Assembly: GCA_000999095.1 (NCBI GenBank)
Contig: LCFP01000012.1
Span: 68,140-132,139, forward strand
Reading direction: 5' to 3'
Length of the DNA: 64,000 bases
From: Candidatus Gottesmanbacteria bacterium GW2011_GWA2_43_14
GTDB lineage: Bacteria > Patescibacteriota > Microgenomatia > 2-02-FULL-39-11
Part shown: one piece after another, positions 8,787 to 52,574 of the stretch
Position numbering within the stretch: the first letter of the stretch is position 1
How the letters are laid out: the number at the start of each line of letters is the position of its first letter
Made by a program: the position numbers and the translations under genes
The notes under the pieces: generated by a model
Told to the model about the DNA's origin: nothing
Database searches by the model: none
What the model saw: only the letters and a program-made list of their open reading frames with translations

Positions 8787-8796
8787 AAAACATTTT

Positions 8797-16607: not shown

Positions 16608-16664
16608 TTAGAATACGTTAGTTGTTTCTGCTACCATGGTGAAAACAATAACTGATGTATTACT

Positions 16665-17543: not shown

Positions 17544-17547
17544 TTCT

Positions 17548-18741: not shown

Positions 18742-18768
18742 ATTTATTAATCGAGATAGACACTGATA

Positions 18769-19578: not shown

Positions 19579-19633
19579 AATCCGTTAATTTATGTAATTC
19601 AGAAATTATAAAATTATTTAAGCAAAAATCATT

Positions 19634-20206: not shown

Positions 20207-20211
20207 ATTTT

Positions 20212-22037: not shown

Positions 22038-22056
22038 TTTTCTATAAATTAAATTA

Positions 22057-23223: not shown

Positions 23224-24296
23224 AAATAGCAATAATTTTGGGAACACGGCCGGAGATAATCAAAATGAGCCCTATTATCAAAGAATGTCAACACAGAAAA
23301 CTCGATTTTTTTATTTTACACACGAACCAGCATTATTCAACAAATCTAGATTCAATATTTTTCAAAGAACTCTGCCTTCCCCATCCGCAATATAATTTAC
23401 AGATTGGATCAGGAACCCATGCGGAAGAGACTGGTAAAATGCTTATTGGTATTGAGAAAATACTAAAGAAGGAAAATCCAAATATCATATTAGTCGAAGG
23501 TGACACAAATACAGTATTAGCCGGAGCATTATCAGCTGCTAAGCTTCGGATTAAAGTCGGACACGTAGAGGCCGGACTTAGGTCATATTTTCGGGAAATG
23601 CCGGAAGAAATTAATAGAATATTAACTGACCACTTATCTGATTATTTATTTACACCAACTACCCAAACTAAAGAAATTCTGTTAAGAGAAGGCATTAGCC
23701 AGGAAAGGATATTTTTAACTGGAAATACAATTGTTGATGCCGTATTCCAAAATTTGAAAATTGCTGAAGAAAAATCACAAATATTAAAAAAAATAAAATT
23801 AAAGAAAAACAATTATTTATTATTGACTGTTCACAGACAGGAAAATGTTGATATTAGAAATCGGTTAAACCAAATTATGAGCGGAATAGGTAAAATTTAT
23901 CGTAAATATAATTTACCGATAATCTACCCGATTCACCCTAGATCTTCAAAGATGATTAAACAGTTCAAAATAATTATTCCTGATGGAGTAAAGATAATCA
24001 ATTCGGTTGGGTATCTTGATTTTCTTAATCTAGAAGCTAGCTCAAGGCTTGTGTTAACGGATTCAGGAGGAGTTCAAGAGGAAACATGCGTACTTCAAGT
24101 TCCTTGTGTGACATTACGGGATAATACCGAAAGACCGGAAACCATAGAAGTTGGTAGTAATATTCTGGCAGGAGTGAATCCCCAAAAAATTCTTCAATCG
24201 ACTGAATTTATGTTAAATAAAAAGAAGCATTGGGAAAATCCGTTTGGAAGTGGAAAATCTTCTCTGACTATTTTAAATATAATTACCCATATATGA
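23220..24296 (+). CDS. wecB: UDP-N-acetylglucosamine 2-epimerase (non-hydrolysing)
   Basis: MKIAIILGTRPEIIKMSPII, HVEAGLRSY, DSGGVQEET, which are the conserved WecB/MnaA segments. Confidence 0.85.
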   Translation: MKIAIILGTRPEIIKMSPIIKECQHRKLDFFILHTNQHYSTNLDSIFFKELCLPHPQYNLQIGSGTHAEETGKMLIGIEKILKKENPNIILVEGDTNTVLAGALSAAKLRIKVGHVEAGLRSYFREMPEEINRILTDHLSDYLFTPTTQTKEILLREGISQERIFLTGNTIVDAVFQNLKIAEEKSQILKKIKLKKNNYLLLTVHRQENVDIRNRLNQIMSGIGKIYRKYNLPIIYPIHPRSSKMIKQFKIIIPDGVKIINSVGYLDFLNLEASSRLVLTDSGGVQEETCVLQVPCVTLRDNTERPETIEVGSNILAGVNPQKILQSTEFMLNKKKHWENPFGSGKSSLTILNIITHI

Positions 24297-26089: not shown

Positions 26090-26718
26090 TGACAAATAAT
26101 TCGTGGTTAGACTGGAATCATCTACTAAATACCTATTCCAATGTTGTTACAAAAGAGAATCTAGTTATAGAAATTGGTAGCTCTACAGTTTCAAGGACAA
26201 TTGATATAGCAAAACGTTGTAAAAAATTGATAGGGGTGGAAAAGTATAAAAATCGAATTCCTGCAGACAATAAATTTTCAAGATATAAAATTAAAATTAT
26301 TAAGGGAGATTGGCAAAATTTAGGAGAAGTAATTACCCCAAATTCAATAGACATTATTATTGCTTCCCATGTAATAGAGCATGTTAAAGACGATATTAAG
26401 TGTTTGAATGAGAGTTATAAAGTGCTTAAAGAGGGAGGATACTTGATATTTAATACTCCAAATAGGAAAAGATTAGCAAGAACTATTATTGAATTTTTTA
26501 TTGGAGAAAGAAAGTTTCCTTTTTGGGAACATATTAGGGAATATGTCAAGTCAGATCTAGAAAAATTAATTGAAAAGTCAAATTTTTCTGACAAGGAAGC
26601 AGTAATTTCTTCTGTTGGATTTGGACTCCGCCTATTTGGTTTTGGATACTATACAACTCGGTCCCCAGTAATTCTTGACTCATTATCTACTTTTTGGGAA
26701 GTTGTACTAAGAAAATAA
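26089..26718 (+). CDS. class I SAM-dependent methyltransferase
   Basis: IIASHVIEHVKDDIKCLNESYKVLKEGGYLIFNTPN. Confidence 0.55.
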   Translation: MTNNSWLDWNHLLNTYSNVVTKENLVIEIGSSTVSRTIDIAKRCKKLIGVEKYKNRIPADNKFSRYKIKIIKGDWQNLGEVITPNSIDIIIASHVIEHVKDDIKCLNESYKVLKEGGYLIFNTPNRKRLARTIIEFFIGERKFPFWEHIREYVKSDLEKLIEKSNFSDKEAVISSVGFGLRLFGFGYYTTRSPVILDSLSTFWEVVLRK

Positions 26719-29481
26719 ATGTCAGTTTTTAAGAAGTATTATCCTTTTCTCTTTTTGACTCTTCTATCTTTTTGGTTTGTTATTTATCAAAAAAATGGCC
26801 TTCTTTCATTAGGTGATTTTGTATTTCCTCCAATACCTGAACTGTGGTTATATTTTAGATTGTTTGCTTGGAAAGATTTCGCATTTTTAGGGAATGCATC
26901 CTACATTGATTATGTAAATCTCATTCACTATTTCCCAATTTTTGCGCTTTTTAAAATCGGAATTCCAATTACTGTAATACAATCCATTTTCATTTCGGCA
27001 CTTTTTATTATTGGTTCTTTTGCTATGTACCATTTGCTTCATGAAGTATTAATAGAGTCAATCCACAAGAAAATTATTTGTATGATATGTGCAATTTTGT
27101 ATATGTTTAATCCATATGTAGCGATAGTCAAACTTAGAGGATATAATATGAGTTTATATGCTTATGTATTCGCTCCTTTAATAATCTATTTCTTTACAAA
27201 ATATATTAAAGGAAGACATTTTTTTAAAAACAAATATCTATACTTAATCGGATTTTCATATTTATTATCAAGTCCTGCGAGTACTCAACCTGCGTATATA
27301 ACTTGGTCAATTTTCCTAATTTTCTATTTCAGTCTTTTACTGTTTTTGTTTCATAACTTTAATAAAACTATTCTTCTAAAATTTTTAATTGTAATCACTC
27401 TTTTTTTTCTCATAAATACATTTTGGATTATGTCTTTGGTGTTAAATTTAGGTGCGATCAATAGAATTATAGACGTAGTTCAAGATGAAACTAGTCTTGA
27501 AGCAATAAATAATGTTAGTGGGAATAATTTAGTTAATACATTCAGGTTATTGGGTATACCTGGAATGGACGCTACATGGAGAGGGATCCCGTATCTTTCA
27601 TATTATCAAATATATTCTTCTCCGATTTTTATCTTCGTAGGAATTTCATTGTTTTTAATAACATTTTTCGGATGGTTATTTTCACCTTGGACTCATTTAA
27701 AAGGTAAAGAAAGATTATGGTGGTTCTATTTTATTTCAATATCTCTACTCTCAATCTTTATTATTGGAGGAGTAAATTTTCTAATTCCAAATTTGAAACT
27801 CTGGTTATTTAAAAATTTTCCTCTTTTTCTACTCTATAGAAAACCGTATGAAAAAGGGGCATTTTTTTTCATTTTTTCACTAGTAGGCCTTTTAGCTATT
27901 TCCTTGAAAATCATATCAAACATGCTTGATTTTCATGTTAAAAAGCGAAATAAGAATATTACTACAATTTTTTTTATTGTTATTCTATTCTTCGTGCTTC
28001 TATACAATTTCCCGTTTTGGTCAAAGCAGATTTTCACGTCCATAAATCATCCAGAATGTACTATTAATAGTCTGAATCATTACCCGAATTATCTTTATTA
28101 TTTTGGAGAACAATTAGAAAAGGATAAAAAAGTTGGTCGATTATTAGGATTACCGATTAATAACAGTCCAATCAGTTCTGGTGTAGAAAATTTTAAATGG
28201 GGTTATGCTGGAATTGATCCAATATTTCTATTTACTAATAAAGGATATATTCTTATGAATCCTTTAATCCCCTTTATAAAAAATTTTTATCAAAATATAA
28301 ATAGCGAATCTGTAAATGAAATAAATTATGTGTCAAATTTATCATCCATAAATAGTCTATTCAATATAAAAAAAAACATATTACGAAACGATATTTGCTG
28401 GCAACTGTATCATTCTCCAGATCCTTCTCATGACAAAAAATATTTAGATGGAATGAACACAAAAAAAACTAGTATCGGAGAACTAGATTTATATGATGTT
28501 TCTGCTGAAAATTTTGTCCCCCATGTTTACACACCTCAACATATAATTTATTCTCAAGACTCTGTAAAAAAACTTACATTTATCATTTCTCAACCAGAGT
28601 TTACTGCTCGCTCTGCAGTATTTTTTGAAAGCCAAAATTCTTTTACTCATTTTAAGAATCAATTAAACCAATTAGGAATAAGTAGTATTTCAACAGATGG
28701 AGCAAAAATTCAGCTGAGTCGTCTTCCTGTAACTGAATTTAAGAAAATTAATCCTGTAAAGTATAGAGTTATTATCCATGGTGCTACCGGTAAATTCCCC
28801 TTTTTACTTAATGAAAGTTTTCATGATGGGTGGAAGACTTATTTTGTAAAACTCAATAATATTTGGTCATCAAATCATAATTCCAAATCGGATCTCAACT
28901 CCCTAATTACAAAATATAAAATACTAGATGGAAATGAAGAAGATCAGGTAAATATTGAAGAATTAAAGGAATTTGTAGATAAAGGTTTGGTAACAATCTT
29001 AGGAAATGGCGAGGAACAATCGATTATTCATTTGAAATATGAAAATGGAATAGAGAAATTGGATTACATTGAAAAATATAAAATTGATTTTGTATCGAAG
29101 AATTTTCAGGATACGATTCAGAATGATAATTTGCCTAACGGTTCGTATTATGAAACTTGGTTTGCCGGAAAGAGTGATGATTCCTGGATCAGCAAAATAA
29201 CTGGTTTTAATAAAAGCATACTTCAAGTTCCTGATGATACTCACTTAATGGTTAATGGATATGCTAATTCTTGGATTATTGATCCTGAAAAAATTTGTAA
29301 AAATAATGGATTCTGTAAAATAAATGATGACGGAAGTTACGACTTAGAAATGGTTATTGAATTTTGGCCGCAAAGGCTATTTTATTTGGGATTAGGAATT
29401 TCCGGAATGACATTGCTATTATGTTTGATATATTTAATTTATGACTTTATATATAAAAAGATGGTAAGATATAGAGTGTGA
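26719..29481 (+). CDS. very large polytopic membrane protein with an extracytoplasmic C-terminal domain; putative GT-C-type glycosyltransferase/polymerase (YfhO-like)
   Basis: 920 aa. About 14 N-terminal TM helices, a long soluble region, then a final TM helix (LGLGISGMTLLLCLIYLIY). No soluble enzyme motif recognised. The architecture matches GT-C enzymes that use polyprenyl-phosphate sugars. Confidence 0.4.
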   Translation: MSVFKKYYPFLFLTLLSFWFVIYQKNGLLSLGDFVFPPIPELWLYFRLFAWKDFAFLGNASYIDYVNLIHYFPIFALFKIGIPITVIQSIFISALFIIGSFAMYHLLHEVLIESIHKKIICMICAILYMFNPYVAIVKLRGYNMSLYAYVFAPLIIYFFTKYIKGRHFFKNKYLYLIGFSYLLSSPASTQPAYITWSIFLIFYFSLLLFLFHNFNKTILLKFLIVITLFFLINTFWIMSLVLNLGAINRIIDVVQDETSLEAINNVSGNNLVNTFRLLGIPGMDATWRGIPYLSYYQIYSSPIFIFVGISLFLITFFGWLFSPWTHLKGKERLWWFYFISISLLSIFIIGGVNFLIPNLKLWLFKNFPLFLLYRKPYEKGAFFFIFSLVGLLAISLKIISNMLDFHVKKRNKNITTIFFIVILFFVLLYNFPFWSKQIFTSINHPECTINSLNHYPNYLYYFGEQLEKDKKVGRLLGLPINNSPISSGVENFKWGYAGIDPIFLFTNKGYILMNPLIPFIKNFYQNINSESVNEINYVSNLSSINSLFNIKKNILRNDICWQLYHSPDPSHDKKYLDGMNTKKTSIGELDLYDVSAENFVPHVYTPQHIIYSQDSVKKLTFIISQPEFTARSAVFFESQNSFTHFKNQLNQLGISSISTDGAKIQLSRLPVTEFKKINPVKYRVIIHGATGKFPFLLNESFHDGWKTYFVKLNNIWSSNHNSKSDLNSLITKYKILDGNEEDQVNIEELKEFVDKGLVTILGNGEEQSIIHLKYENGIEKLDYIEKYKIDFVSKNFQDTIQNDNLPNGSYYETWFAGKSDDSWISKITGFNKSILQVPDDTHLMVNGYANSWIIDPEKICKNNGFCKINDDGSYDLEMVIEFWPQRLFYLGLGISGMTLLLCLIYLIYDFIYKKMVRYRV

Positions 29482-29482
29482 T

Positions 29483-30487
29483 ATGCAAAGTTCAGGTAAA
29501 CAGTCTTTAGACGAACAGTATCATATTAAAAGGATTGATCCCCAAGCCAAGAGTAGTATAATACCCTCTAATGGAAATTTTATGAGCTCAAACAGAAATG
29601 TTGTCATATCAGCCTTGATCATTCTGGTGACGGTTGTACTGGGAGGATATTTGTTAATAACCAAAAAAGACTCGCTGATCAGAAAGGGCAGTTCTACTGA
29701 TATTATTAATACTGTCGGCCTCAAATTTTCTGAAAAAAGCTTCAAGCTAGATTATGCCAATATTGATCCGGAAACTGTTTTGGAGATTTCTGACTTTGAG
29801 CGCAAAGAAGAATGGCGGGGTAGCCACGAATATGATGATGTAATCTTTTGGAAAGGCGAATACTCACTTCTTTTATCTTCCAAAGATAACGAGCAGGTTG
29901 ATGCTTACACGGAAAAGTCCTTGAATCTAGATAAACATGATGTTTTCAAAATGGCTCTGAATGTCCAGACAGATCCGGCCGATATTGAATCAGTCAAGGT
30001 TTATTTTTCCGATAAGGACAAAAACTCGTCATATTATTATTCCATCCGCAGTATTGTTAAAGGATGGAATTTTCTGGTCATTCCCAAAGAGAAATTCTCA
30101 ACGAGGGGACTCTCCAAGGAGCCGGCAGCGGCTTCCCCCGGCGCTATAACTGGTGAACTGAGTTGGTCTAACATCGAAAGGGTAGGCTTCGAATTAGCTT
30201 CAAGGGCAAATTCTTCCAGTGAAATAAATGTGGATTCGATGGAAACCTTCATCAATGAAGAATATTTGGATTCCTGGTTGGTAAAAAGTCCGGTACAGCT
30301 TAATTTGGCAAAAGTGGGAGGTCAATATTATCTTGAAGGACGTAATTACGGCGGCTCCGTAGCCTTGCTGAAAAAACTCAGCGGCATTTCCAACTTTAAA
30401 TTTAAAGCCAAGTTGATGCCAATGAAATCCAATGCCAGGAGTGGCTTGTTTGTGCGCGGTGATACGGTGTCATTAATAATTTTATAG
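29483..30487 (+). CDS. membrane-anchored extracytoplasmic protein with a beta-sandwich (lectin/GH16-like) C-terminal part; 3' end appears frameshifted
   Basis: N-terminal TM VVISALIILVTVVLGGYLLI. The ORF stops at SLIIL*, but the homologous-looking sequence continues in another frame (see next feature). Confidence 0.5.
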   Translation: MQSSGKQSLDEQYHIKRIDPQAKSSIIPSNGNFMSSNRNVVISALIILVTVVLGGYLLITKKDSLIRKGSSTDIINTVGLKFSEKSFKLDYANIDPETVLEISDFERKEEWRGSHEYDDVIFWKGEYSLLLSSKDNEQVDAYTEKSLNLDKHDVFKMALNVQTDPADIESVKVYFSDKDKNSSYYYSIRSIVKGWNFLVIPKEKFSTRGLSKEPAAASPGAITGELSWSNIERVGFELASRANSSSEINVDSMETFINEEYLDSWLVKSPVQLNLAKVGGQYYLEGRNYGGSVALLKKLSGISNFKFKAKLMPMKSNARSGLFVRGDTVSLIIL

Positions 30488-30681
30488 TTGAAAAAGATGT
30501 TCCTTTGTGGCTGTCAGTAGAAGCAAAAGGCTCGAATTTTAAATATTCCTTGTCAATGGATGATAAATCCTATTCCGAGCTGGCCCAGGTAAATGACTCG
30601 GAATATAAAGAGGGCGGCCTGGGAATAGCAGTTCTTGATTTGGGAGCCACTCTTTTTGACATGTTTGACTTCTCTCAATAA
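30463..30681 (+). pseudogene. frame-shifted C-terminal continuation of the preceding gene (indel or sequencing error around ...TCATTAATAATTTTATAG...)
   Basis: Open frame YGVINNFIVEKDVPLWLSVEAKGSNFKYSLSMDDKSYSELAQVNDSEYKEGGLGIAVLDLGATLFDMFDFSQ*. It reads through the stop of 29483..30487 and has no start codon or SD of its own. Confidence 0.4.
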
Positions 30682-30706
30682 AATCCCTTTCGTGTAAAAT
30701 AAAATA

Positions 30707-31921
30707 GTGAGAGATATACGGCCTGTAAACATCCTTTTTACCAGCATTGTTTTTCTGTTTGTAGTCTATCTGACCGGCGCATTGGATTTGGCGATAACAG
30801 CTTCCGTTATCGCCTCTGCCTTGCTTTTTCGGTTTCAGTCTGTTTGGCTCTTTCTCTCGGCTTTAATTGTTTTTGCTTTCTATTTGGTGACTATCTTCCT
30901 GTCACTGAAGATCAAACTGGTAACCGATTTTTCCGTTTCCTCCTATCTTCTTTTTGCTTCAGGACTTTTGCTATATTTTCTTGAAGGGCAGAAAAGCCGC
31001 TGGCAGATAAATCTGCCCGTTTTGGATAAGTTCCCGGTGGATAGGAATAATTTGGTTAAGCTCGGGGCTATCCTGTTTTTCACTTTTTTGGTTTATCCCC
31101 TAACCGGACCAAATTTTGGTGCCATATTCGGTTACATTGCATTTCTGTATTTATTTAAAAAATCTGAAGGCAGGTACGCTTTTATAGTGGCTTTATTTTT
31201 TCTTATTCTTTGCCCGTTTCTTCTGATCGCTAAGAGAGAAAAAGTAGCTGAAGAATCGGCAATATTTACCTATTATTTTCTTGTTATCGGTACCTTTCAG
31301 GAAATCATTGATATGTTTAGAAGTCCCACCAGTGAGGATGAGCCAATTGAGGATGACGGGGAAAACAGTCTGGGATATACTCTTCTCGACTATAGGAAAA
31401 AAATGCATTCGGTCCATATTAAAAAATTAAAGCTGTACACAGCTTTAGTATTTATCCTGATATTAATTTTGGCGGGCATCTTTTACGGCCAGAAATATTT
31501 ATCGAACGGAAAAAAATTAAATTTAAACCTTAAACTATTCAATAAGACGTCAAAACAATTACCTACTGTCACTCCGTCTCCGGCGGATATGTCTCCGACG
31601 CCTACTTTAACTCAAGTAGAATTAAAGGACAGAATAGCCAGCGACAGTTTTAATCTCAAGGTTTCCGTTCTCAACGGTACCGATATCGCCGGATTGGCAG
31701 CCTCAACCGGTGCCAAATTGAAGACAGCCGGCTTTAATAATGTCGATACAGGGAATACTCCGGAAGCTTACCAGACTTGGAGGCTTTCCATAAAGGAAAA
31801 AGAAGACTTGCTAATAGAGTATTTAAAGGCAATTCTTGAGCTTAAACAGTTGGATGTTATAGAAGCAACCGGCGGAGCTGTCTACGACTTGGAAATAATT
31901 GCCGGAAAATCCTCTCAATGA
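30707..31921 (+). CDS. membrane protein with a C-terminal LytR_C (cell-envelope-related) domain
   Basis: About 6 N-terminal TM helices and a further mid-protein TM helix. C-terminal KVSVLNGTDIAGLAASTGAKLKTAGFNNVDTGNTPEAYQTWRL matches the LytR_C domain pattern. Confidence 0.5.
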   Translation: MRDIRPVNILFTSIVFLFVVYLTGALDLAITASVIASALLFRFQSVWLFLSALIVFAFYLVTIFLSLKIKLVTDFSVSSYLLFASGLLLYFLEGQKSRWQINLPVLDKFPVDRNNLVKLGAILFFTFLVYPLTGPNFGAIFGYIAFLYLFKKSEGRYAFIVALFFLILCPFLLIAKREKVAEESAIFTYYFLVIGTFQEIIDMFRSPTSEDEPIEDDGENSLGYTLLDYRKKMHSVHIKKLKLYTALVFILILILAGIFYGQKYLSNGKKLNLNLKLFNKTSKQLPTVTPSPADMSPTPTLTQVELKDRIASDSFNLKVSVLNGTDIAGLAASTGAKLKTAGFNNVDTGNTPEAYQTWRLSIKEKEDLLIEYLKAILELKQLDVIEATGGAVYDLEIIAGKSSQ

Positions 31922-31964
31922 TCCTGTTGTCCCGGAAGATGTTTTTAACTACAATATCTGTTAT

Positions 31965-33752
31965 ATTTTGATGATTAAAAGGAATCTGTCCGCTTTTGTT
32001 TTTTTTGGCCTGCTATCCCTGGTTATTACTCTGCCTCTTTTAAAGCCGGGCTACATCCTGACTTTGGATATGGTCCAGGTGCCTGATCCGGGCTGGCCAT
32101 CCCCCTGGCAGGTCAGTTTTCCGGTTGCCCTCTTAAACAAATTATTTGTCCTGTTTCTGCCTTCTTACTGGTTTCCGAAGATAGTTTTATTTCTGGTTTT
32201 TTTCCTTTCAGGTGTAAGCATGGCTACTTTTGTAGGAACAGGGAATATTCTCGTTAATCTTTTTGCCGGAACAATTTATACCCTGAATCCGTTTGTATAT
32301 GAAAGGGTCATGGCCGGTCACTGGTATTTCCTCCTCGGTTACGCTTTGTTTCCCTGGCTGGTTAAATCCGTTGTTGATCTTTTCCGCCGGCCGGCTCTTA
32401 CTTCGACTTTAAAATTAGCCTTGCTGGCCACTCTTATATTCAATCTTTTTCTTCATTTTACAGTCATTTTCGCCGTTTTTTTTGTCATCTATGCGATCTT
32501 CTTTCTTATTGTCAACTCCCGGAACATAAAATCAAAACTGTATTATTATTTGAGCCTGTTCCTCTTTGTCATCTTTATTTTCAATCTTAACTGGTTATTG
32601 CCTACATTAGCCGGTAAATCTACAATCAGTGATTCCCTAAGCTCTTTTTCCCGGCAGGACCTCTATGCTTTCCAGACAGTCGCTGATCCGCAGTTCGGGC
32701 TGATATTCAATCTTCTATCCGGTTTTGGTTTTTGGGAAGAAGTATATGATTATTTTATTTCACAAAAGCAGATAATCCCCTTTTGGCCTTTACTGTCATT
32801 GCCGATCATTGCTCTTTCAATCATGGGGTTAGTTTACCTCCTGACTAAAAAAGAAAATTGGGAAAACCTGGTTTTGAATATCAGTTTGCTGGTGGTTTTT
32901 ATACTGGCTTTGGATTTTGCCGGAGGCATCGCCTTAAAACAGTTCGCTCCGACAGTCTTTGCTCTGTATGATAGGATTCCCATCCTCTATGGATTGAGAG
33001 AGCCGCAAAAGCTGGTCATGCTGATGATGTTCTCTTACGCTTATTTCGGAGCGTACGGGCTGAAATGGTTTAAATCATTAGTAAAGCCATTGGCAGCCAA
33101 ATTGCTTGTTATCGGCGGATTTTTCTTGATTCCTTTTGTTTATACACCACTTATCTTTGCAGGATTTTGGGGACAGTTAAAGCCTGTTTTTTATCCCGAA
33201 AGCTGGTACCGTGTCAGCGCCATTATTAATGCGGACAATGATAACTTCCGGATGTTATTTTTACCATGGCACCAGTATTTGAGGTTTAATTTCAATCATA
33301 ATTTGGTTATCGCTAATCCCGTGCCTGAATTTTTTAATAAACCTGTTTTGGCTTCTCGAAACTATGAAACCAGGCCTTTATACAGTCATGACCAAAGGCC
33401 GGAAGCGCTTCATATGGAGGGGCTTTTCTCTATTCAGGAAAAGAAAGTCAACCTTTTCGGGCAGGAGGTTGAATATCCGGTAGATTGGAGCCGGGATTTA
33501 GCGATCATAGATATAAAGTACATCATGCTGTCGAAGGACTCCGACTGGCTAAAGTATAAATTCTTGGATGATGATCCTGAGTTGTATAAACAATTCGAGG
33601 ATGACAGCCTTATACTTTACCGCAATCTGATGTTCGGGGTAGAGCCTGTCTACCCCGAACCGGAGCCTTCCCCCACGGTTGCCACCGGGTCAGCCGGGCT
33701 GGAAAATGAAGAAACATCAACTGCCCCTGCCGAAACGATCGAAGAAGAATGA
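31965..33752 (+). CDS. large polytopic membrane protein; second putative GT-C/YfhO-like glycosyltransferase
   Basis: More than 12 TM helices, then a soluble C-terminal region and an acidic PEPEPSP...EEE tail. Likely start MIKRNLSAFVFFGLL; the track ORF begins at 31899. Confidence 0.4.
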   Translation: MLMIKRNLSAFVFFGLLSLVITLPLLKPGYILTLDMVQVPDPGWPSPWQVSFPVALLNKLFVLFLPSYWFPKIVLFLVFFLSGVSMATFVGTGNILVNLFAGTIYTLNPFVYERVMAGHWYFLLGYALFPWLVKSVVDLFRRPALTSTLKLALLATLIFNLFLHFTVIFAVFFVIYAIFFLIVNSRNIKSKLYYYLSLFLFVIFIFNLNWLLPTLAGKSTISDSLSSFSRQDLYAFQTVADPQFGLIFNLLSGFGFWEEVYDYFISQKQIIPFWPLLSLPIIALSIMGLVYLLTKKENWENLVLNISLLVVFILALDFAGGIALKQFAPTVFALYDRIPILYGLREPQKLVMLMMFSYAYFGAYGLKWFKSLVKPLAAKLLVIGGFFLIPFVYTPLIFAGFWGQLKPVFYPESWYRVSAIINADNDNFRMLFLPWHQYLRFNFNHNLVIANPVPEFFNKPVLASRNYETRPLYSHDQRPEALHMEGLFSIQEKKVNLFGQEVEYPVDWSRDLAIIDIKYIMLSKDSDWLKYKFLDDDPELYKQFEDDSLILYRNLMFGVEPVYPEPEPSPTVATGSAGLENEETSTAPAETIEEE

Positions 33753-37808: not shown

Positions 37809-38972
37809 ATGAAAAAATACTTCCTCCTTTTTTTCCTGTTGCTTCTTCTTCCCCTGAAAGCAGTATTCGCCCAATCTGACGGCAGTCAGAATAATAACGA
37901 AATGAAAGTTTTCCGCATCGAAAGCGATGAGGTAATCGATCACGATGTCTTTGCCGCCGCCGAACGGGTCGATATCGAAGGCACGGTCAACGGCGATGTC
38001 TACGCGGCAGGAGGGCAGGTTTATGTCGGAGGAACTATAACAGGCGATCTTCTGGTTGCGGCCGGGCAGATAAACATCACAGGCGATATCGGCCAGAATC
38101 TGAGACTGGTCGGCGGCAACGTGACCATAAACGGCAATGTCGGACGCAATGTTTCTCTGGCTGCCGGGAATGTGGATATCACCGGTGAAGGAGAAATCAC
38201 CGGCGGCCTGGCAGCTGCTTTCGGCAATCTGAATCTGACCTCACCTGTCGGAAAATACCTCAAAGTTGCCGGCGGCAATCTGACGGTAGCCAACAGAGTC
38301 GGCGGTGATGTGGAAGCCGCCATTGGTGTCATGAGGCTTACCCCCAATGCCCAGATAGACGGAAACTTAACCTATTGGAGTGACAACCGGTCGTCACTTG
38401 ACGAGTCCCGGGTTGCCGGACAGGTGTATTTCAACCGGACTGATATGCCGGCCCGGGGCAGAGTCAGGGATGCCGTCGGACGTGTCGGCGGGGCCATGTC
38501 TGTCGGCAGCTTCATCTTTACCTTTATTTTGGGACTTGTCTTTTTGTGGCTCTTCCCCAAATTCACGCGAAAAACGGTCGGCGTCCTGCGGGAACAGCCG
38601 ATGAAGTCCTTTTTATGGGGAATAGCGACTTTATTTATTTTTATCTTCGTTTTCATCGTTCTGGCCGTGACCATTCTCGGCATACCCCTGGCATTGCTGT
38701 TGGCTTTTCTCTACGGGTTTGCCTCGTATATTTTCCGCATCCCGGTCATCTATTTCGCCGGCTCCTGGCTGATGCAGAGGTTCGGTGATGAGGAAAGGGA
38801 AATCCTCTCCTTGACGGCAGGGCTTATCATTTACTGGATACTGATACTTCTGCCTGTCAGGATGCTAGCGACTTTGGTTGTCACTTTTATGGGATTGGGC
38901 GCGGCTTTTCTGGCCTTCAGGAAAAAGCAGCCGGCGGCTTCGGCAACTGCCCGGGGACGGAAAAAAGCTTGA
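37809..38972 (+). CDS. secreted beta-helix repeat protein (bactofilin-like / polymer-forming repeats) with C-terminal TM segments
   Basis: Signal peptide MKKYFLLFFLLLLLPLKAVFA. Repeats GDVYAAGGQVYVGGTITGDLLVAAGQINITGDIGQNLRLVGGNVTINGNVGRNVSLAAGNVDITG. Three C-terminal TM helices. The track start at 37773 lies upstream of the signal-peptide Met. Confidence 0.45.
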   Translation: MKKYFLLFFLLLLLPLKAVFAQSDGSQNNNEMKVFRIESDEVIDHDVFAAAERVDIEGTVNGDVYAAGGQVYVGGTITGDLLVAAGQINITGDIGQNLRLVGGNVTINGNVGRNVSLAAGNVDITGEGEITGGLAAAFGNLNLTSPVGKYLKVAGGNLTVANRVGGDVEAAIGVMRLTPNAQIDGNLTYWSDNRSSLDESRVAGQVYFNRTDMPARGRVRDAVGRVGGAMSVGSFIFTFILGLVFLWLFPKFTRKTVGVLREQPMKSFLWGIATLFIFIFVFIVLAVTILGIPLALLLAFLYGFASYIFRIPVIYFAGSWLMQRFGDEEREILSLTAGLIIYWILILLPVRMLATLVVTFMGLGAAFLAFRKKQPAASATARGRKKA

Positions 38973-39006
38973 AAAAACGGTAGTCATCTGTTATATATAA
39001 ATAATT

Positions 39007-39090
39007 ATGACGGCGCGTCACGGTAACGAAATTAATATCCTCTCAATTATTGTCCTTGTCATTGGACAGGGCAAAATGCGGGAGGCCTGA
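39007..39090 (+). CDS. ilvL: ilv operon leader peptide (27 aa: MTARHGNEINILSIIVLVIGQGKMREA)
   Basis: Small ORF in the 170-nt ilvD leader. It is rich in Ile/Leu/Val codons (ATC CTC TCA ATT ATT GTC CTT GTC ATT) and is followed by an antiterminator/terminator arrangement. No obvious SD. Confidence 0.55.
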   Translation: MTARHGNEINILSIIVLVIGQGKMREA

Positions 39091-39118
39091 AAAGCAAAAA
39101 ATTTTTAATTTAAAAAAA

Positions 39119-39150
39119 GCCTCTCAAAACAGAGAGGTTTTTTGGTTTTT
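39119..39150 (+). terminator. attenuator terminator of the ilv operon (GCCTCTC-AAAACA-GAGAGGC plus TTTTTTGGTTTTT)
   Basis: Hairpin directly abutting the ilvD start. Its 5' arm can alternatively pair with GGGAGGC (39080-39086), which overlaps the leader peptide stop. The 3' arm GAGAGG doubles as the SD for the TTG at 39142. Confidence 0.6.
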
Positions 39151-40869
39151 ATGAAGAAAAAAAGCCTTAAATGGAGAAGCGGGCTTCTGACGGGAACAGC
39201 CGGTGGCAGCGACTGGGTCAAAAGGGCGGCCGCCAGGGCTATGCTTCGCGCGGTCAATTTCCGGGATGAGGATTTTCTGAAACCGATTGTCACGGTCGCC
39301 TGTCCTTTTACCAACGCCACTCCCTGCAATGCCCATCTTCTCACTTTGGGTGAAACCGTAAGCTTGGAAATCGAAAAACAGGGCGGCAAACCTTTTTTGT
39401 TCGGAACTCCCGTTATTACCGACGGCGAATCGATGGGTATGGAAGGCATGAAGTATTCCCTGGTTTCCCGCGACCTGATTGCCGACTGCATCGAATCAAT
39501 GCACGAATCCTACCAAGCCGACGGCTTAATCGCCCTTTGCGGCTGCGACAAAACCATACCGGCCGCCGCCATGGGACTGGCCCGCAACAATTCAATCGGC
39601 CTGGTTCTTTACGGAGGCAGCATATTGCCGGGACGGCTCAACGGCAAAGACCTGACCGTGGTCTCCATTTTCGAAGCCATCGGATCCAAAAGCGCCGGAA
39701 AAATGACCGATAAGGATTTCCATGATGTAGAATGCGCCTCCTGTCCGGGAAACGGGGCCTGCGGAGGGATGTATACCGCCAATACCATGGCTTCCGCCCT
39801 CGAGGTTTTGGGCATCAGCCTGCCTTATTCCTCTTCAAACCTGGCCGTTGATAGCCAAAACAGACTTTCCCGGGACAAGCTGGCCGATTGCCGCAAAAGC
39901 GCGGAGGCTTTGTTCCTGCTTCTGGAAAAAGGCATCCGGGCCAGGGATATTTTGACCGGGAAAGCTTTTGAAAACGCCGTCACTTTTGTTCTGGCCATCG
40001 GCGGCTCGACCAATGCTGTTTTGCATTTGCTGGCCATTGCCCGTGAGGCCGGCGTCAAACTGGACCTTTCTGATTTTTCCAAATTAGCTGAAAAAGTGCC
40101 CCTGATCGGCAATTTCAAACCGTTCGGCAAATATGTCATGGAAGATCTGCATAAAATCGGCGGCGTGCCCATGGTCATGAAAATGCTTTTTGAGAAAGGC
40201 CTTCTCAACGGCAGCTGTCTGACGGTCACAGGCAAAACTGTGGCCGAAAATTTAAAGGAAACGGGCAAGCGTCCTGCCGGCCAGGATGTGGTTTATAGCC
40301 TGGAAAAACCCCTGGCAGCCAAAAACTGCCATATCCGCATTCTTTACGGCAGTCTTGCCCCCGAAGGCGCTGTTATCAAGCTGGCGGGATCGGGGATAAC
40401 CCGGCACCGCGGCCCGGCGCGTGTTTTTGATCAGGAAGAATCAGCCCTGGAGGCGATTTTGGCAGGTAAAATAAAAAAAGGCGAGTGTCTTATCATCCGC
40501 TACGAAGGACCCAAAGGCGGTCCGGGCATGCGCGAAATGCTCTCTCCTTCATCCGCTTTAATGGGGGCGGGACTAGGCAGAGAGGTGGCCCTTCTTACCG
40601 ACGGCCGTTTTTCCGGAGGCACACACGGTATCATGGTCGGGCATATTTCGCCTGAAGCCGTAGACGGAGGATTGATTGCCTTGGTCAGGGACGGGGACAT
40701 CATAAATATTGACGCTGACAGCCGGACAGTTGATCTGGAGGTGGCGCAAAGCGAAATTAAAAAAAGGAAGGCTGCCTGGAAAAAGCCGAAAGCAAAATAC
40801 CCGCGGGGCGTGTTGGCCAAGTATGCCAGATTAGTCGGCAGCGCCTCGGAGGGAGCCGTCACCAGCTAG
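39142..40869 (+). CDS. ilvD: dihydroxy-acid dehydratase
   Basis: ALCGCDKTIPAAAMGLARNNSIGLVLYGGSILPG and the C-terminal GGPGMREML ... TDGRFSGGTHG motifs. Start is either TTG at 39142 or ATG at 39151. Confidence 0.9.
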   Translation: MVFMKKKSLKWRSGLLTGTAGGSDWVKRAAARAMLRAVNFRDEDFLKPIVTVACPFTNATPCNAHLLTLGETVSLEIEKQGGKPFLFGTPVITDGESMGMEGMKYSLVSRDLIADCIESMHESYQADGLIALCGCDKTIPAAAMGLARNNSIGLVLYGGSILPGRLNGKDLTVVSIFEAIGSKSAGKMTDKDFHDVECASCPGNGACGGMYTANTMASALEVLGISLPYSSSNLAVDSQNRLSRDKLADCRKSAEALFLLLEKGIRARDILTGKAFENAVTFVLAIGGSTNAVLHLLAIAREAGVKLDLSDFSKLAEKVPLIGNFKPFGKYVMEDLHKIGGVPMVMKMLFEKGLLNGSCLTVTGKTVAENLKETGKRPAGQDVVYSLEKPLAAKNCHIRILYGSLAPEGAVIKLAGSGITRHRGPARVFDQEESALEAILAGKIKKGECLIIRYEGPKGGPGMREMLSPSSALMGAGLGREVALLTDGRFSGGTHGIMVGHISPEAVDGGLIALVRDGDIINIDADSRTVDLEVAQSEIKKRKAAWKKPKAKYPRGVLAKYARLVGSASEGAVTS

Positions 40870-43145: not shown

Positions 43146-44213
43146 ATGTCAAAAATGAAATTCGGAGACACGCAGGAAACAGTGGTTACCAGGGAGGAGT
43201 TTCCCTTAAGCCGCGCCAGAAAAGTCCTTAAAAATGAGACAATTGCCGTCATCGGTTACGGCGTCCAGGGGCCGGCCCAGGCGCTGAATCTCAGGGACAA
43301 CGGATTTAAAGTCATCGTCGGCCAGAGAAAACCGTCACCTTCATGGAACAAGGCTCTCAAGGACGGCTGGAAGCCGGGCAAAGACCTTTTTTCCATTGAA
43401 GAGGCCTGTAAAAAAGGGACCGTTGTAGCCTATCTGTTGTCCGATGCCGGACAGGTAACTTTATGGCCGGCTGTCAAAAAATATCTGACGGAAGGCAAAG
43501 CTCTTTATTTTTCCCACGGCTTTGCCGTTACCTACCGCAAACAAACCGCCGTCGTGCCCCCGAAAAATATCGACGTTCTATTGGTGGCTCCCAAAGGCGC
43601 CGGCCGCAGTGTCAGAAGGAATTTCCTCTCCGGCTCCGGCATCAATTCCAGTTATGCCGTTTTTCAGGATGCCTCGGGCAAAGCAGGCGACCGGGTTAAA
43701 GCAATAGGGATGGGGATAGGATCAGGCTTTTTGTTCGAAACGACTATTGAAAAGGAAGTATACTCCGATTTGACCGGCGAACGGGGGGTTCTGATGGGAG
43801 CCATCGCCGGCATTATGGAAGCCCAGTACAATGAGCTTCGCAGGCGTGGCCATACGCCGAGCGAAGCCTTCAATGAAACAGTCGAGGAAGCCACCCAGTC
43901 TTTGATCCCCCTGATCGGCGAAAACGGCATGGATTGGATGTTTGCCAACTGCTCGACAACCGCCCAAAGAGGCGCTTTGGACTGGAAAGGCAAATTCCGC
44001 CAAGCCGTCGAGCCTGTTTTCAGGCAGTTATATACTTCGGTCAAAAAAGGCGAAGAAACGAAAAGGGTCCTTAAATCCAATTCCAGTCCCGATTATAAAA
44101 AGAATCTGCGCCGGGAGCTGGACTTGATTAAAAACAGCGAGATGTGGCGGGTAGGCGCCAAGGTCAGGAGCTTAAGGCCGGAAAAAATAATATTGGTCAA
44201 AGGCAAAAAATGA
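43146..44213 (+). CDS. ilvC: ketol-acid reductoisomerase
   Basis: IAVIGYGVQGPAQALNLRDNGFKVIVGQR (NADPH-binding). 355 aa. SD AAAGGAG upstream. Confidence 0.9.
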   Translation: MSKMKFGDTQETVVTREEFPLSRARKVLKNETIAVIGYGVQGPAQALNLRDNGFKVIVGQRKPSPSWNKALKDGWKPGKDLFSIEEACKKGTVVAYLLSDAGQVTLWPAVKKYLTEGKALYFSHGFAVTYRKQTAVVPPKNIDVLLVAPKGAGRSVRRNFLSGSGINSSYAVFQDASGKAGDRVKAIGMGIGSGFLFETTIEKEVYSDLTGERGVLMGAIAGIMEAQYNELRRRGHTPSEAFNETVEEATQSLIPLIGENGMDWMFANCSTTAQRGALDWKGKFRQAVEPVFRQLYTSVKKGEETKRVLKSNSSPDYKKNLRRELDLIKNSEMWRVGAKVRSLRPEKIILVKGKK

Positions 44214-46057
44214 GCACCAACGGTTTTTACCATATCAGCTGTTTTATCTGCTCCAAAGTCTGGGATGAAAAGGTAAACACGACCGTCTGCAGCTGCGGCG
44301 GGCCTTTGGACATTGTTTACGATTACGACCAGCTGGCCGGTTTGAATACCTATCTTCTGCGCAACGCTCCGCCGAAGGTGATCAAGTATCTGGACTTCTT
44401 TCCCCTAAAAGAAAGAAAAGCACTGGTGAGTTTGGATGAGGGAGCCACCCAGCTTCATAAAGCGGAAAACCTCGGCAAACGATTATCACTGCCGAAACTT
44501 TACATCAAAAACGAGGGCTTGAATCCGACCGGCGCCTTCAAGGACCGGGGTTCATTTGTCGAGATCAACAAAGCCAAAGAGCTCGGCTTTGCTAAAGTCT
44601 GTGTCGCTTCAACAGGCAACATGGCGGCATCCGTGGCAGCTTACAGCGCCCAGGCCGGATTGACCTGTTTTGTCTTTGTCCCGGAAAATACGCCCAGGGG
44701 AAAACTGGCCCAGGCCATTTCTTACGGTTCACATGTCATCCAGGTCAGGGGCACCTATTCGGATGCTTATGACTTGACGATGAAGGTAGCCGCCCATTAC
44801 CGCTATTATCTGGCGGGCGATTATGCCTTCCGGGGAGAGGGCCAGAAATCGCTGTCATACGAAGTCTGTGAGCAGTTGTGGTTTTCGCCGCCTGATTGGG
44901 TTTTGGTTCCGGCCGGTATGGGCACCAATCTTTCGTACATTTGGAAAGGATTCAAGGAGTATTACCGTTTGGGACTGATCCCCAAATTGCCCCATATGGT
45001 GGCAGTCCAGGCGGAAGGATCTGCCCCGATTGTTACTGCATTTGAGAAAAGGTCCAAACTCGTGCCTGTCGGAAAGCCCCAGACTGTCTGTTCCGCCATC
45101 GCCGTCGGCAATCCGATAGACGCGCCGAAAGTCTTTGCCGCACTCAAAGAGTCAAAGGGCCAGGCAATAGCAGTTTCGGATGACGAGACTTTAAAAGCCC
45201 AGCAGGAACTGGCCAAACTGGAAGCTCTGTATGTCGAGCCGTCCTCGGCAACCGTGATAGCTGCCCTGAAAAAACTTATAAAAAAAGGCCTGATAAAGGA
45301 AAGCGATACCGTGGTGGCTGTGGCAACCGGAGCCGGTCTCAAGGATCCCGCGACCACGCTGAAAGTCATTGCCGAGCCGCCATTGATCGAACCTGTTTTG
45401 TCCGAAGTGGAAAGGGTCATGGACAGCGATTTTTTAAGCTTGAGGGCAGGCAGTGTCGGAGAAAAAGAAAAGCTGATATTTGCCAAAGTCCCGGCTTTAC
45501 GGCAGGTGAAGGAGATAATCAAAAAGGAATTCAGCCTGAGCCTGGATGATGAAACAGTCAAAATCATCCGCAACGTCATTGCCAAATTCATAAACATCAA
45601 GGGCAAAAAGATCGTCAAAGCGGATTTGCAGTCGATTATCGAAACGGTTATTGCCGATGAACGCAGGCAAAAGACTTTGGAAGTAGTTGATTTCCATATC
45701 GAAACTTTCAAGAAAAAGAAGCCCATGGCAACAGTCACGGTTGATATTAAAGGCCGTAAGTATACGGAAACCAGTGACGGGGTAGGTCCTGTCGATGCCG
45801 CCATCCGCGCCATCACAGCAGCCATCCGCAAAAATGATGCGGTCAAATTCAGGCTGACCGATTTTGCCGTCGAGATTCCGACCACCGGTTCCGACGCTAC
45901 GGTTGAAGCAACGATGGTCCTTCAGGATGAACACGGCACCCAGGTAGTGGAAAAGGGGACCTCTCCGGATATTATCGTCGCCTCTATCGAAGCCTATGAA
46001 AAGGGGTATAATGAACTTGTTTATCAAAGATCCAAAAACGGAAAGGATAAAAAATGA
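44210..46057 (+). CDS. threonine-synthase-fold PLP enzyme fused to a LeuA/CimA-type allosteric regulatory domain (putative threonine deaminase/synthase-like enzyme of the ilv operon)
   Basis: N-terminal Cys4 ribbon (CFICSKVW ... CSCGG). PLP lysine motif NPTGAFKDRGS. Fold-type II core. C-terminal approx 150 aa matches the LeuA_dimer regulatory domain (SDGVGPVDAAIRAITAAI ... TGSDATVEATMVL ... DIIVASIEAYEKGYNEL). ATGA overlap with ilvC. ridA immediately downstream. Confidence 0.7.
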   Translation: MSTNGFYHISCFICSKVWDEKVNTTVCSCGGPLDIVYDYDQLAGLNTYLLRNAPPKVIKYLDFFPLKERKALVSLDEGATQLHKAENLGKRLSLPKLYIKNEGLNPTGAFKDRGSFVEINKAKELGFAKVCVASTGNMAASVAAYSAQAGLTCFVFVPENTPRGKLAQAISYGSHVIQVRGTYSDAYDLTMKVAAHYRYYLAGDYAFRGEGQKSLSYEVCEQLWFSPPDWVLVPAGMGTNLSYIWKGFKEYYRLGLIPKLPHMVAVQAEGSAPIVTAFEKRSKLVPVGKPQTVCSAIAVGNPIDAPKVFAALKESKGQAIAVSDDETLKAQQELAKLEALYVEPSSATVIAALKKLIKKGLIKESDTVVAVATGAGLKDPATTLKVIAEPPLIEPVLSEVERVMDSDFLSLRAGSVGEKEKLIFAKVPALRQVKEIIKKEFSLSLDDETVKIIRNVIAKFINIKGKKIVKADLQSIIETVIADERRQKTLEVVDFHIETFKKKKPMATVTVDIKGRKYTETSDGVGPVDAAIRAITAAIRKNDAVKFRLTDFAVEIPTTGSDATVEATMVLQDEHGTQVVEKGTSPDIIVASIEAYEKGYNELVYQRSKNGKDKK

Positions 46058-52037: not shown

Positions 52038-52376
52038 TCAGTCTCCTTTGGTGTTTACTTTTTTAGGTTCCAAAAGCAAAACGACTGCTCTTTTTTCAGC
52101 TTTCGGACAGTGTTTGACGCCCTTCGGTACGACATATCCTTCACCTGACGACAATTCCACGTTTCCGTTTTCGGTTTGAATGGTAATTTTCCCTTTATAA
52201 ATCAGGAAAAATTCGTCATCATCGTGTTTATGCCAATGAAATTCTCCCTTGACCGCGACAGCCCTTAAGACCCAGTCATTGATATAGGCGACATCGACAG
52301 GAGACCAGTAAGTGTCTCCGAGCTTTTTATCTACCTGGGCAAGATTGTATTTTTCGGCCATTTTATTAACATTCAT
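52038..52376 (-). CDS. cupin-domain protein (first gene of the leu operon)
   Basis: [17 protein letters not shown] ... [12 protein letters not shown] (cupin_2 His/Glu pattern). SD AGGAAAGGAG upstream. Only 5 nt precede leuA. Confidence 0.6.
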
Positions 52377-52405
52377 AAAACTCCTTTCCTGCCGTTTTGC
52401 GGCAT

Positions 52406-52430
52406 AAAAAAACCTCTCCTGTTTGGAGAG
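52406..52430 (-). terminator. attenuator terminator of the leu operon (CTCTCC-AAACAG-GAGAGG plus 7 T, on the - strand)
   Basis: Lies about 30 nt upstream of the cupin start. The 5' arm TCTCTCC can alternatively pair with GGGGAGA 20 nt upstream. Nearly identical to the ilv attenuator hairpin. Confidence 0.6.
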
Positions 52431-52469
52431 ATTTAAAATTTATTAAAAAGGATTTTCTCCCCAAACCGC

Positions 52470-52544
52470 TCAGACCTTCAAAAGAAGGCTAAGATCAGGG
52501 TTAAGGAGAGAAATTCCGGTCATGTTTGATTTTATTTTACTCAT
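52470..52544 (-). CDS. leuL: leu operon leader peptide (24 aa: MSKIKSNMTGISLLNPDLSLLLKV)
   Basis: Small - strand ORF in the leu leader with seven Leu codons, including a CTT AGC CTT CTT TTG run. The coding segment GGAATTTCTCTCC is complementary (12/13) to downstream GGGGAGAAAATCC. Confidence 0.55.
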   Translation of the reverse strand: MSKIKSNMTGISLLNPDLSLLLKV

Positions 52545-52574
52545 TCCGCTATTTTCTGTCAATTCCGGTCCGAT

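Follow-up and report, generated by a model that had tools for sequence, protein, structure and literature searches.

A predicted leader-peptide attenuator upstream of ilvD in Candidatus Gottesmanbacteria

Organization of the ilv leader

A putative leader-peptide transcription attenuator was identified upstream of ilvD, which opens an operon for branched-chain amino acid (BCAA) synthesis, in a 64,000-nucleotide (nt) stretch of Candidatus Gottesmanbacteria bacterium GW2011_GWA2_43_14 (contig LCFP01000012.1, positions 68,140 to 132,139; hereafter the window). The Gottesmanbacteria are members of the Microgenomates, a group of Patescibacteria, and of the Candidate Phyla Radiation (CPR). The IlvD of the window is 100% identical to KKS96094.1 (Candidatus Gottesmanbacteria bacterium). 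The LeuA of the window likewise has a counterpart in Gottesmanbacteria with 100% identity, and the named LeuA matches that rank next are from Gottesman-, Roizman- and Moranbacteria. The operon has the order ilvD-ilvB-ilvN-ilvC, followed by a gene for a PALP/LeuA_dimer fusion, and ilvE lies about 425 nt further downstream. The leader ahead of ilvD consists of a promoter, a short open reading frame (ORF) and four pairing segments (regions 1 to 4). The features, with the basis of each assignment, are as follows (MFE, minimum free energy).

38969 to 38997, plus strand: promoter with -35 TTGAAA (38969-38974), a 17-nt spacer and an extended -10 TGT-TATATA (38989-38997), read from the sequence
39007 to 39090, plus strand: leader-peptide ORF of 27 codons plus TGA, MTARHGNEINILSIIVLVIGQGKMREA (ORF translation)
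39031 to 39063, plus strand: regulatory codons I-N-I-L-S-I-I-V-L-V-I, with 5 Ile, 2 Leu and 2 Val (codon count)
39039 to 39044, plus strand: region 1, CCUCUC, within the regulatory codons, partner of region 2 (MFE fold and RNAalifold consensus)
39050 to 39074, plus strand: inner stem-loop of the 1:2 hairpin, UUGUCCU.GUC-AUUG-GAC.AGGGCAA (fold; seven consensus pairs)
39080 to 39086, plus strand: region 2, GGGAGGC, able to pair with region 1 or with region 3 as antiterminator (pairing scan)
39114 to 39125, plus strand: region 3, the terminator 5' arm, an A-tract and GCCUCUC (terminator scan, arm extraction)
39132 to 39150, plus strand: region 4, the terminator 3' arm GAGAGG (39132-39137), then the U-tract UUUUUUGGUUUUU (39138-39150) (terminator scan, arm extraction)
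39151 to 40869, plus strand: ilvD, dihydroxy-acid dehydratase, first gene of the operon (NCBIfam NF002068, 755 bits)

The leader ORF starts at ATG 39007 and stops at TGA 39088-39090. The original prediction, made from the letters of this stretch, described nine consecutive Ile, Leu, Val or Ser codons in a 27-codon ORF, and this ORF was recovered at 39007-39090 with the uninterrupted run ILSIIVLVI. Ile, Leu and Val occupy 9 of 12 codons in the core of the ORF, which is the small ORF densest in isoleucine, leucine and valine (ILV) on both strands of the 64-kb window (8 of 9 residues). The -35 hexamer overlaps the TGA of the upstream gene, which ends at 38972, about 140 nt ahead of the hairpin. 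The product of this gene has 399 amino acids (aa) and no family match in the window, and its counterpart in relatives is annotated DUF8173. The promoter scanner accepts a -10 hexamer only if its sixth base is T and therefore passed over the TATATA promoter (38992-38997). If the promoter TTGAAA(38969-38974)-17-TATATA(38992-38997) is used, the transcribed leader is about 147 nt long, shorter than the 170 nt given originally.

CCTCTC was located inside the regulatory codons exactly where it had been placed. The position given for GGGAGGC was also correct, and its supposed overlap with the leader stop was not: it abuts the stop, ending 1 nt ahead of the TGA. An AT-rich spacer follows the leader ORF and leads into the terminator AAAAAGCCTCTC-AAAACA-GAGAGGTTTTTT-GGTTTTT and then the ilvD ATG at 39151. 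The terminator had been described as GCCTCTC-AAAACA-GAGAGG with a T-run, and the terminator scanner detected it as a 12-bp stem (39114-39143) with the tail GGTTTTTATG, an intrinsic terminator at 39114-39150 between the leader ORF and ilvD. RNAfold of 38973-39160 gave -48.7 kcal/mol (z = -4.1), and none of 200 shuffles was equally stable. The fold is composed of the terminator and a long hairpin in which CCUCUC (39039-39044) pairs with GGGAGG (39080-39085) around the inner stem-loop.

Conservation of the ilv leader among relatives

Relatives were collected from IlvD matches in a protein database (69-82% identity), and their contigs were then fetched. The same layout is present upstream of ilvD in eight further distinct leaders from metagenomic relatives (loci L161/L162, L167, L166, L169, L163-165, L170, L172 and L081), which gives nine ilv leaders with that of the window. 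L168 is a partial locus at a contig edge that holds the terminator only and is kept outside the nine. Scans of genomes and metagenomes with IlvD returned mostly relatives of 50-56% identity from unrelated phyla, with the leader in L081 only. The leader is not present at the nearest 'deltaproteobacterium' metagenome-assembled genomes, L001 and L002, nor at L082-L084. The Levybacteria locus L173 has leuA directly ahead of ilvD and L171 begins at ilvD, and neither informs on the extent of the family in other CPR groups.

The promoter TTGA(A/C)A-17-TATAnn is present in all nine ilv leaders, and seven carry the TGn extension. The start codon is ATG or GTG and lies 8-10 nt past the -10 hexamer in every case. 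A start chosen for its spacing from the promoter alone reads in frame with the ILV block in every one of the nine leaders, and no in-frame stop occurs in the nine ORFs. The peptides share the core I-x-I-L-S-I-I-V-L-V-I-G-Q-G, with variable N- and C-termini and a length of 20-31 aa, and together contain 48 Ile, 24 Leu and 24 Val among 241 residues. Indels in the leader ORF amount to 0, 3, 6 or 9 nt, and the alignment is free of gaps from region 1 to region 2. The positions just 5' of region 1, outside the helices, vary within I/V/L (EINI, QINI, LIII, SVVI, PIII), which is a signature of selection on codon class and not on the RNA alone.

Region 2 is found as (U)GGGAGGC, and the terminator is found as well, in all nine leaders. 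The RNAalifold consensus contains the 1:2 helix, the inner stem and the terminator, with double changes at 6 pairs, and compensatory changes occur in the inner stem (e.g., CCUCG...CGAGG in L172). The terminator arms covary as GCCUCUC/GAGAGG, GCCUCC/GGAGGC, CCCUCCC/GGGAGGG, CCCUCCU/AGGAGGG and AUCCUCC/GGAGGAU, and the foot pair of the terminator core is G:U, G:C, U:A or C:G depending on the leader. A three-way compensatory change was found in L169, where regions 2, 3 and 4 are GGGAGGA-UAU, AUA-UCCUCC and GGAGGAU, respectively. The MAFFT alignment A1 mis-registers the terminator 3' arms because of unequal loop lengths, so that the pairs reported there by RNAalifold as broken are spurious; the arms were therefore extracted sequence by sequence. 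Conservation of the mini-ORF and the hairpins in related genomes, which the original prediction had proposed as a check, was thus borne out, with the frame kept and the arms covarying. The upstream genes, where visible, are DUF8173, DNA_binding_1 (L163), HemolysinCabind (L169), a Mg-chelatase-like ATPase (L170) and a divergent gene (L172), and the leader with its terminator stays attached to ilvD irrespective of the upstream gene.

Alternative pairings of the leader RNA

The 2:3 antiterminator of the window pairs GGGAGGC with GCCUCUC over 7 bp (-12.0 kcal/mol). Across the whole leader, no segment pairs better with the terminator 5' arm than region 2, and this is so in all nine leaders. The energy of the 2:3 pairing was reached by 1 to 86 of 1000 dinucleotide shuffles, depending on the leader, and by 11 of 1000 for the window.

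Switching was tested on transcripts cut off at the terminator loop, before region 4 is made, and folded with the ribosome footprint masked. With the footprint on the ILV codons, region 3 was computed to pair exactly with region 2 in eight of the nine leaders. With the footprint at the stop codon, it was computed to be unpaired in six, and in L172 it entered a weak 3-bp pairing elsewhere. Folding of 38973-39160 with and without a mask on the leader codons had been suggested earlier; at full length this proved uninformative, and it is the truncated transcripts that reveal the 2:3 pairing. The 1:2, 2:3 and 3:4 pairings are conserved before ilvD in the eight other relatives, in agreement with the ribosome-stalling attenuator that was originally predicted, a reading that withstood all the computational tests applied to it.

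The leu leader

An attenuator had been predicted ahead of the leu genes as well, and a leader of the same four-segment design was indeed found there. It was located through the annotation of leuABCD, since searching the window for homopolymeric amino-acid runs gave too noisy a result to reveal it.

52404 to 52562, minus strand: leu leader with promoter, ORF, regions 1-2 and terminator (same four-segment design; z = -4.8)
52562 to 52534, minus strand: promoter TTGACA-17-TAAAAT, followed by a 10-nt gap (sequence)
52523 to 52470, minus strand: leader ORF of the apparently leaderless type, ATG 52523, MTGISLLNPDLSLLLKV (ORF translation)
within 52404 to 52562, minus strand: region 1 UCUCUCC and region 2 GGGGAGA (pairing segments)
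52434 to 52404, minus strand: terminator AUCUCUCC-AAACA-GGAGAGGU + U7 (terminator scan)

This leader precedes a cupin gene, which is followed by leuA-leuC-leuD-leuB, and it is kept in two other Gottesmanbacteria, L175 (960-1115) and L176 (2338-2500), giving three leu leaders in all. The leader peptide of the window has 6 Leu in 17 codons, and those of L175 and L176 are MPGFSLLNLDLGLLLKA and MNMNLSNLSLLLLGEGEFVV, respectively. Regions 1, 2 and 3 of L176 have been altered together to CUCUCAAACC, GGUUUGAGAG and CUCUCAAACC. Each leu leader contains 6-7 Leu and 0-2 Ile/Val, whereas the ilv leaders are rich in Ile, so that codon bias tracks the function of the operon. As read from the sequences, this match is the strongest functional argument available.

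A 10-codon ORF (52373-52405, minus strand) begins 7 nt past the GGAGAGG of the leu terminator, and its stop overlaps the cupin ATG (ATGA). It may act as a translational-coupling relay from the ribosome-binding sequence embedded in the terminator to the first gene, or it may be due to chance.

Probable leaderless starts and a candidate ribosome-binding site of ilvD

From the -10 hexamer to the start codon there are 8-10 nt in the ilv leaders; of the leu leaders, two have a gap of 9-10 nt and that of L176 has one of 6 nt. Such short gaps imply a 5' untranslated region of 0 to about 4 nt, without a Shine-Dalgarno (SD) sequence. In the ilv leader of the window, the ATG is 9 nt past the -10 hexamer and there is no space for an SD. 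The transcription starts used here were derived from promoter spacing, and the start at 6-10 nt past the -10 in all 12 leaders suggests that the leader ORFs are effectively leaderless. Elsewhere in the window, a -10-like hexamer lies 6-9 nt ahead of the start of several protein genes, without an SD, at 34735, 30707 and 2372 (plus strand) and at 60149 (a minus-strand gene start). Leaderless mRNAs may thus be common in this genome, which would be in line with leaderless leader ORFs.

GAGAGG (39132-39137) is the sole SD-like sequence for ilvD, as originally predicted, at slightly smaller distances than the 5 and 14 nt then given: 4 nt before TTG 39142 and 13 nt before ATG 39151. TTG 39142, considered as an ilvD start, was rejected because it is not conserved; the homologues all begin M-x-x-K-x-L-K at ATG 39151. 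In L169, the database call of IlvD (P0007, 561 aa; 1468 versus 1501) begins 33 nt too late, and the upstream ATG yields MPKNKLKWRSG..., in agreement with the other homologues.

The ilvD ATG lies 9-12 nt after the 3' arm in seven of the nine ilv leaders, with U-rich sequence between and no other SD. Likewise, GAGAGG lies 11 nt ahead of the leuA ATG in L176, again with no other SD. Burial of the SD in the terminator, a further element of the original prediction, is thus partly supported: it fits these eight leaders and not L169, L170 and the partial L168, which have a spacer. Recognisable SDs in the window stand 8-12 nt from their starts (leuB AGGAGG-12, ilvN AGGAG-11, leuA AAGGAG-10, ilvC AAGGAG-8), and GAGAGG-13-ATG of ilvD is at the long end of this range. 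An SD role of region 4 would explain why all four segments are GGAGG-like or CCUCC-like. A translational layer, in which the terminator masks the SD, is plausible on these grounds, if somewhat short of an even chance.

In L168 (35-123), L169 (1349-1467) and L170 (1396-1500), the spacer contains a hairpin and an AUCCGC...GGCGGAU stem (z = -3.3 for the L169 segment), and a Rfam search of these spacers with E up to 1 gave no match. The spacer could be a second regulatory element or an insertion.

Proposed mechanism

The ilv element is probably a ribosome-mediated leader-peptide transcription attenuator controlling ilvD-ilvB-ilvN-ilvC. Transcription would start a few nt before the leader ATG at 39007, and the leader peptide would be made from an mRNA that is leaderless or nearly so. 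With ample charged tRNA-Ile (tRNA-Leu and tRNA-Val counting for less), the ribosome would reach the stop at 39088 and either cover region 2 or let 1:2 re-pair. The 3:4 hairpin and the U-tract would then end transcription in vivo just ahead of the ilvD ATG. The predicted response to amino acid shortage is the reverse. When Ile-, Leu- or Val-tRNA is scarce, the ribosome would stall on INILSIIVLVI and cover region 1 and the inner stem, the free region 2 would pair with the nascent region 3, and RNA polymerase would enter ilvD in the absence of a terminator. Since region 4 is the sole SD-like sequence for ilvD, the same switch plausibly also gates its ribosome-binding site (RBS) on read-through transcripts, exposing it in the 2:3 state and hiding it in the 3:4 state.

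Several observations weigh against this scheme. In MFE folding of full-length RNA with ribosome masks, the terminator was always the thermodynamic winner, and the attenuator model therefore depends on co-transcriptional kinetics; such an outcome is expected of a kinetically controlled attenuator. In L163 and L170, region 2 begins 20-23 nt ahead of the leader stop; it is left uncovered and pairs with region 3, so that termination would depend on 1:2 re-pairing in the wake of the ribosome. The 2:3 duplex of L172 has just 5 bp (-8.9 kcal/mol) and was matched by 86 of 1000 shuffles. The leader ORF lacks an SD, leaderless initiation has to be presumed for its translation, and the start codon is GTG in five of the nine ilv leaders. 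In L169, L170 and the partial L168, a spacer of about 90-125 nt between the terminator and ilvD removes the SD-occlusion layer, and many genes of the window lack any SD. In the Streptomyces coelicolor ilvB leader, as far as the work is cited in PMC1262725, mutation of the candidate regulatory codons had no effect. Anatomy alone is accordingly no proof of attenuation.

Alternative explanations

Control could be mainly translational, as in erm and cat, with the 3:4 hairpin hiding the ilvD SD, stalling opening it and termination being secondary or inefficient. The position of the 3' arm as the only SD-like sequence 9-12 nt before the ATG (seven ilv leaders and the leu leader of L176), the SD-like or anti-SD-like character of all four switching segments and the interrupted U-tracts of L161 (UUAUUUUAUUAU) and L166 (UUAAUUCGUUU) fit such control. 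It is nevertheless improbable, as most leaders have canonical terminators (A-tract, stem and U6-9), and L169, L170 and the partial L168 keep the terminator though ilvD begins about 90-125 nt further on, which indicates that the hairpin is conserved independently of any function as an RBS. A somewhat lower probability is given to a structured RNA switch sensed by a protein, a tRNA or a metabolite, with the ILV-rich ORF arising incidentally from the RNA sequence. The codons conserved best (SIIVLVIGQG) lie in helices, so that RNA structure alone could conserve them, and the ORF lacks an SD. Against such a switch stand the frame kept in 9 of 9 leaders, with indels in multiples of three and no in-frame stops, and the class-preserving I/V/L replacements outside the helices. 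Moreover, the leu leader has Leu codons in place of ILV codons, fitting its operon, and no T-box or riboswitch match was obtained in Rfam with E up to 10.

The hydrophobic, conserved peptide core, bracketed by a promoter and a terminator, might also be expected of an independent small gene for a hydrophobic micro-protein, with ilvD expressed separately. This is very unlikely: the ilvD ATG abuts the U-tract and leaves no space for a second promoter, the termini and length (20-31 aa) of the peptide are free to vary, the element always travels with ilvD whatever lies upstream, and no role would be left for the copy of the terminator 3' arm that is conserved at the end of the ORF. It had further been considered that the hairpin is simply the terminator of the upstream gene, with the ORF arising by chance. 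The end of that gene about 140 nt ahead of the hairpin would allow this. The idea is refuted by the comparative data and retains a negligible probability, as a promoter lies between the two, the element stays with ilvD behind different upstream genes in L163, L169 and L170 and a divergent one in L172, and the ORF tops the ILV density among the small ORFs of the window. The attenuator reading is preferred over all of these.

Relation to known systems

The ilv element matches the enterobacterial ilvGMEDA/ilvBN/trp type of attenuator in every defining feature that can be tested computationally. As in ilvGMEDA (ilvL), ilvBN (ivbL) and the trp, leu, his, thr and pheA leaders, a short ORF carries a run of codons for the end-product amino acid, and four segments form a 1:2 hairpin, a 2:3 antiterminator and a 3:4 intrinsic terminator, with the stop adjoining region 2. 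The mixture of Ile, Leu and Val codons is multivalent, as in ilvL. The general model of leader-peptide attenuation has been described (PMC1183508). Unlike the enterobacterial leaders, with which there is no sequence homology, the Gottesmanbacteria ORF has no SD and starts 8-10 nt past the -10, the terminator abuts the ATG of the structural gene, with the 3' arm doubling as a candidate SD, and the host belongs to the CPR.

The attenuator peptide of Staphylococcus aureus ilvD, with which the ilv-leu operon begins, has a mechanism backed by suppressor mutations and reporter assays (PMC5794164). It resembles the present element in having an Ile/Leu-rich leader peptide and a terminator directly upstream of ilvD. 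In contrast to the Gottesmanbacteria leader, the ORF of S. aureus is preceded, at 9 nt, by an RBS of its own, and its terminator lies 52 nt past the stop; the proposed antiterminator pairs with the poly-U tail and not with the 5' arm, CodY control is added, and there is no sequence similarity (PMC5794164). ILV-rich leader ORFs with terminators have also been reported outside the Proteobacteria in actinobacterial ilvB leaders and the LEU element (PMC1262725) and in Corynebacterium ilvBNC (PMC11857589, PMC10272879). In Deinococcus deserti, the starts of 14 predicted leader peptides coincide with a mapped transcription start or are no more than 1 nt away from it (PMC4007540). The leaderless layout was mapped in that organism and is deduced here from promoter spacing; the feature is thus not unprecedented. 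The statement that attenuation of this kind is known mainly from Proteobacteria, which accompanied the original prediction, is outdated, as examples, documented or predicted, exist in Actinobacteria, Staphylococcus and Deinococcus (PMC1262725, PMC5794164, PMC4007540).

A translational layer has a parallel in the LEU element, whose Leu codon run has been proposed to pair with the leuA SD (PMC1262725). The actinobacterial and Deinococcus cases differ from the present one in phylum and sequence, and here one hairpin would be both terminator and SD mask. In erm and cat, too, a ribosome stalled on a leader peptide rearranges a hairpin further downstream, in which the SD of the controlled gene is hidden. 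There, unlike here, stalling is induced by a drug and not by uncharged tRNA, no intrinsic terminator is involved, and the leader ORFs have their own SD.

T-box leaders are the usual means of ilv-leu control in Bacillota. The T-box covariance model gave no match in 38900-39250 with E up to 10, and no Rfam family, including Leu_leader, Thr_leader, Phe_leader, His_leader and Trp_leader, reached its gathering score anywhere in the window. In a permissive Rfam search, the best sub-threshold hits were Phe_leader (24.5 of 55 bits) and Thr_leader (17 of 55 bits), both driven by the terminator. The ilv leader of L170 (1259-1393) gave a sub-threshold match to BTnc231 (34 bits, gathering score 80.4; E = 7e-4). 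BTnc231 is a small RNA of Bacteroides thetaiotaomicron, a Northern-validated short transcript that has a transcription start and a terminator of its own (PMC7366714), and might itself be a terminated attenuator leader.

Implications for the Candidate Phyla Radiation

Members of the CPR/Patescibacteria are usually described as ultra-small and metabolically dependent, with little biosynthesis and little known regulation. The finding is notable because the host belongs to this group. No published report of leader-peptide attenuation in Patescibacteria/CPR, or of Gottesmanbacteria in connection with branched-chain amino acids, was found in the open-access full text. In this genome, the ilv and leu operons are each under a predicted amino-acid-specific, ribosome-sensing attenuator that is conserved across the lineage. 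These organisms would accordingly make and economise their own Ile, Leu and Val, couple transcription and translation kinetically, and initiate translation on leaderless mRNAs.

A broader and tentative proposal, which at present is rather less likely than its negation, is that the Gottesmanbacteria possess a lineage-specific family of leaderless attenuators for BCAA synthesis, built from SD-like and anti-SD-like segments, in which a single hairpin both terminates transcription and masks the RBS to give coupled control. If true, this would be the first evidence of regulation dependent on coupling of the ribosome and RNA polymerase in the CPR. The mechanism itself is of the textbook kind; the value of the element lies in its taxonomic reach and compact design (a leaderless ORF and a 3' arm serving as SD) and not in any new principle. 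The motif lies outside Rfam coverage and is ready for use by annotators.

Other features of the window and related loci

The fusion gene of the ilv operon (44210-46057, plus strand; also present in L163 from 6159 onward) encodes a 615-aa protein composed of a PALP domain (threonine-synthase-like pyridoxal phosphate enzyme) and a C-terminal LeuA allosteric/dimerisation domain. The gene ilvA is not visible in the ilv operon. The fusion could be a feedback-regulated, threonine-utilising enzyme that replaces IlvA. PhdYeFM/PIN or PhdYeFM/ParE pairs flank the ilv leader in L161 and L163.

A low-GC island extends from 16001 to 32000 (31-33%, against 44-50% elsewhere) and contains many genes without a recognisable SD; it is likely to be a horizontally acquired cluster. 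A bacterial class A RNase P RNA was detected at 9314-9737 (plus strand) with 73 bits, below the Rfam gathering score, which is 100 (E = 3e-22). It contains two large insertions, of 74 and 65 nt, and its P1 region is reduced, as is typical of the divergent RNase P of the CPR, and default annotation would miss it. An adjoining pair of ORFs (8475-9231, plus strand; 103 and 144 aa) is read as antitoxin/PIN-toxin-like from its layout and sequence.

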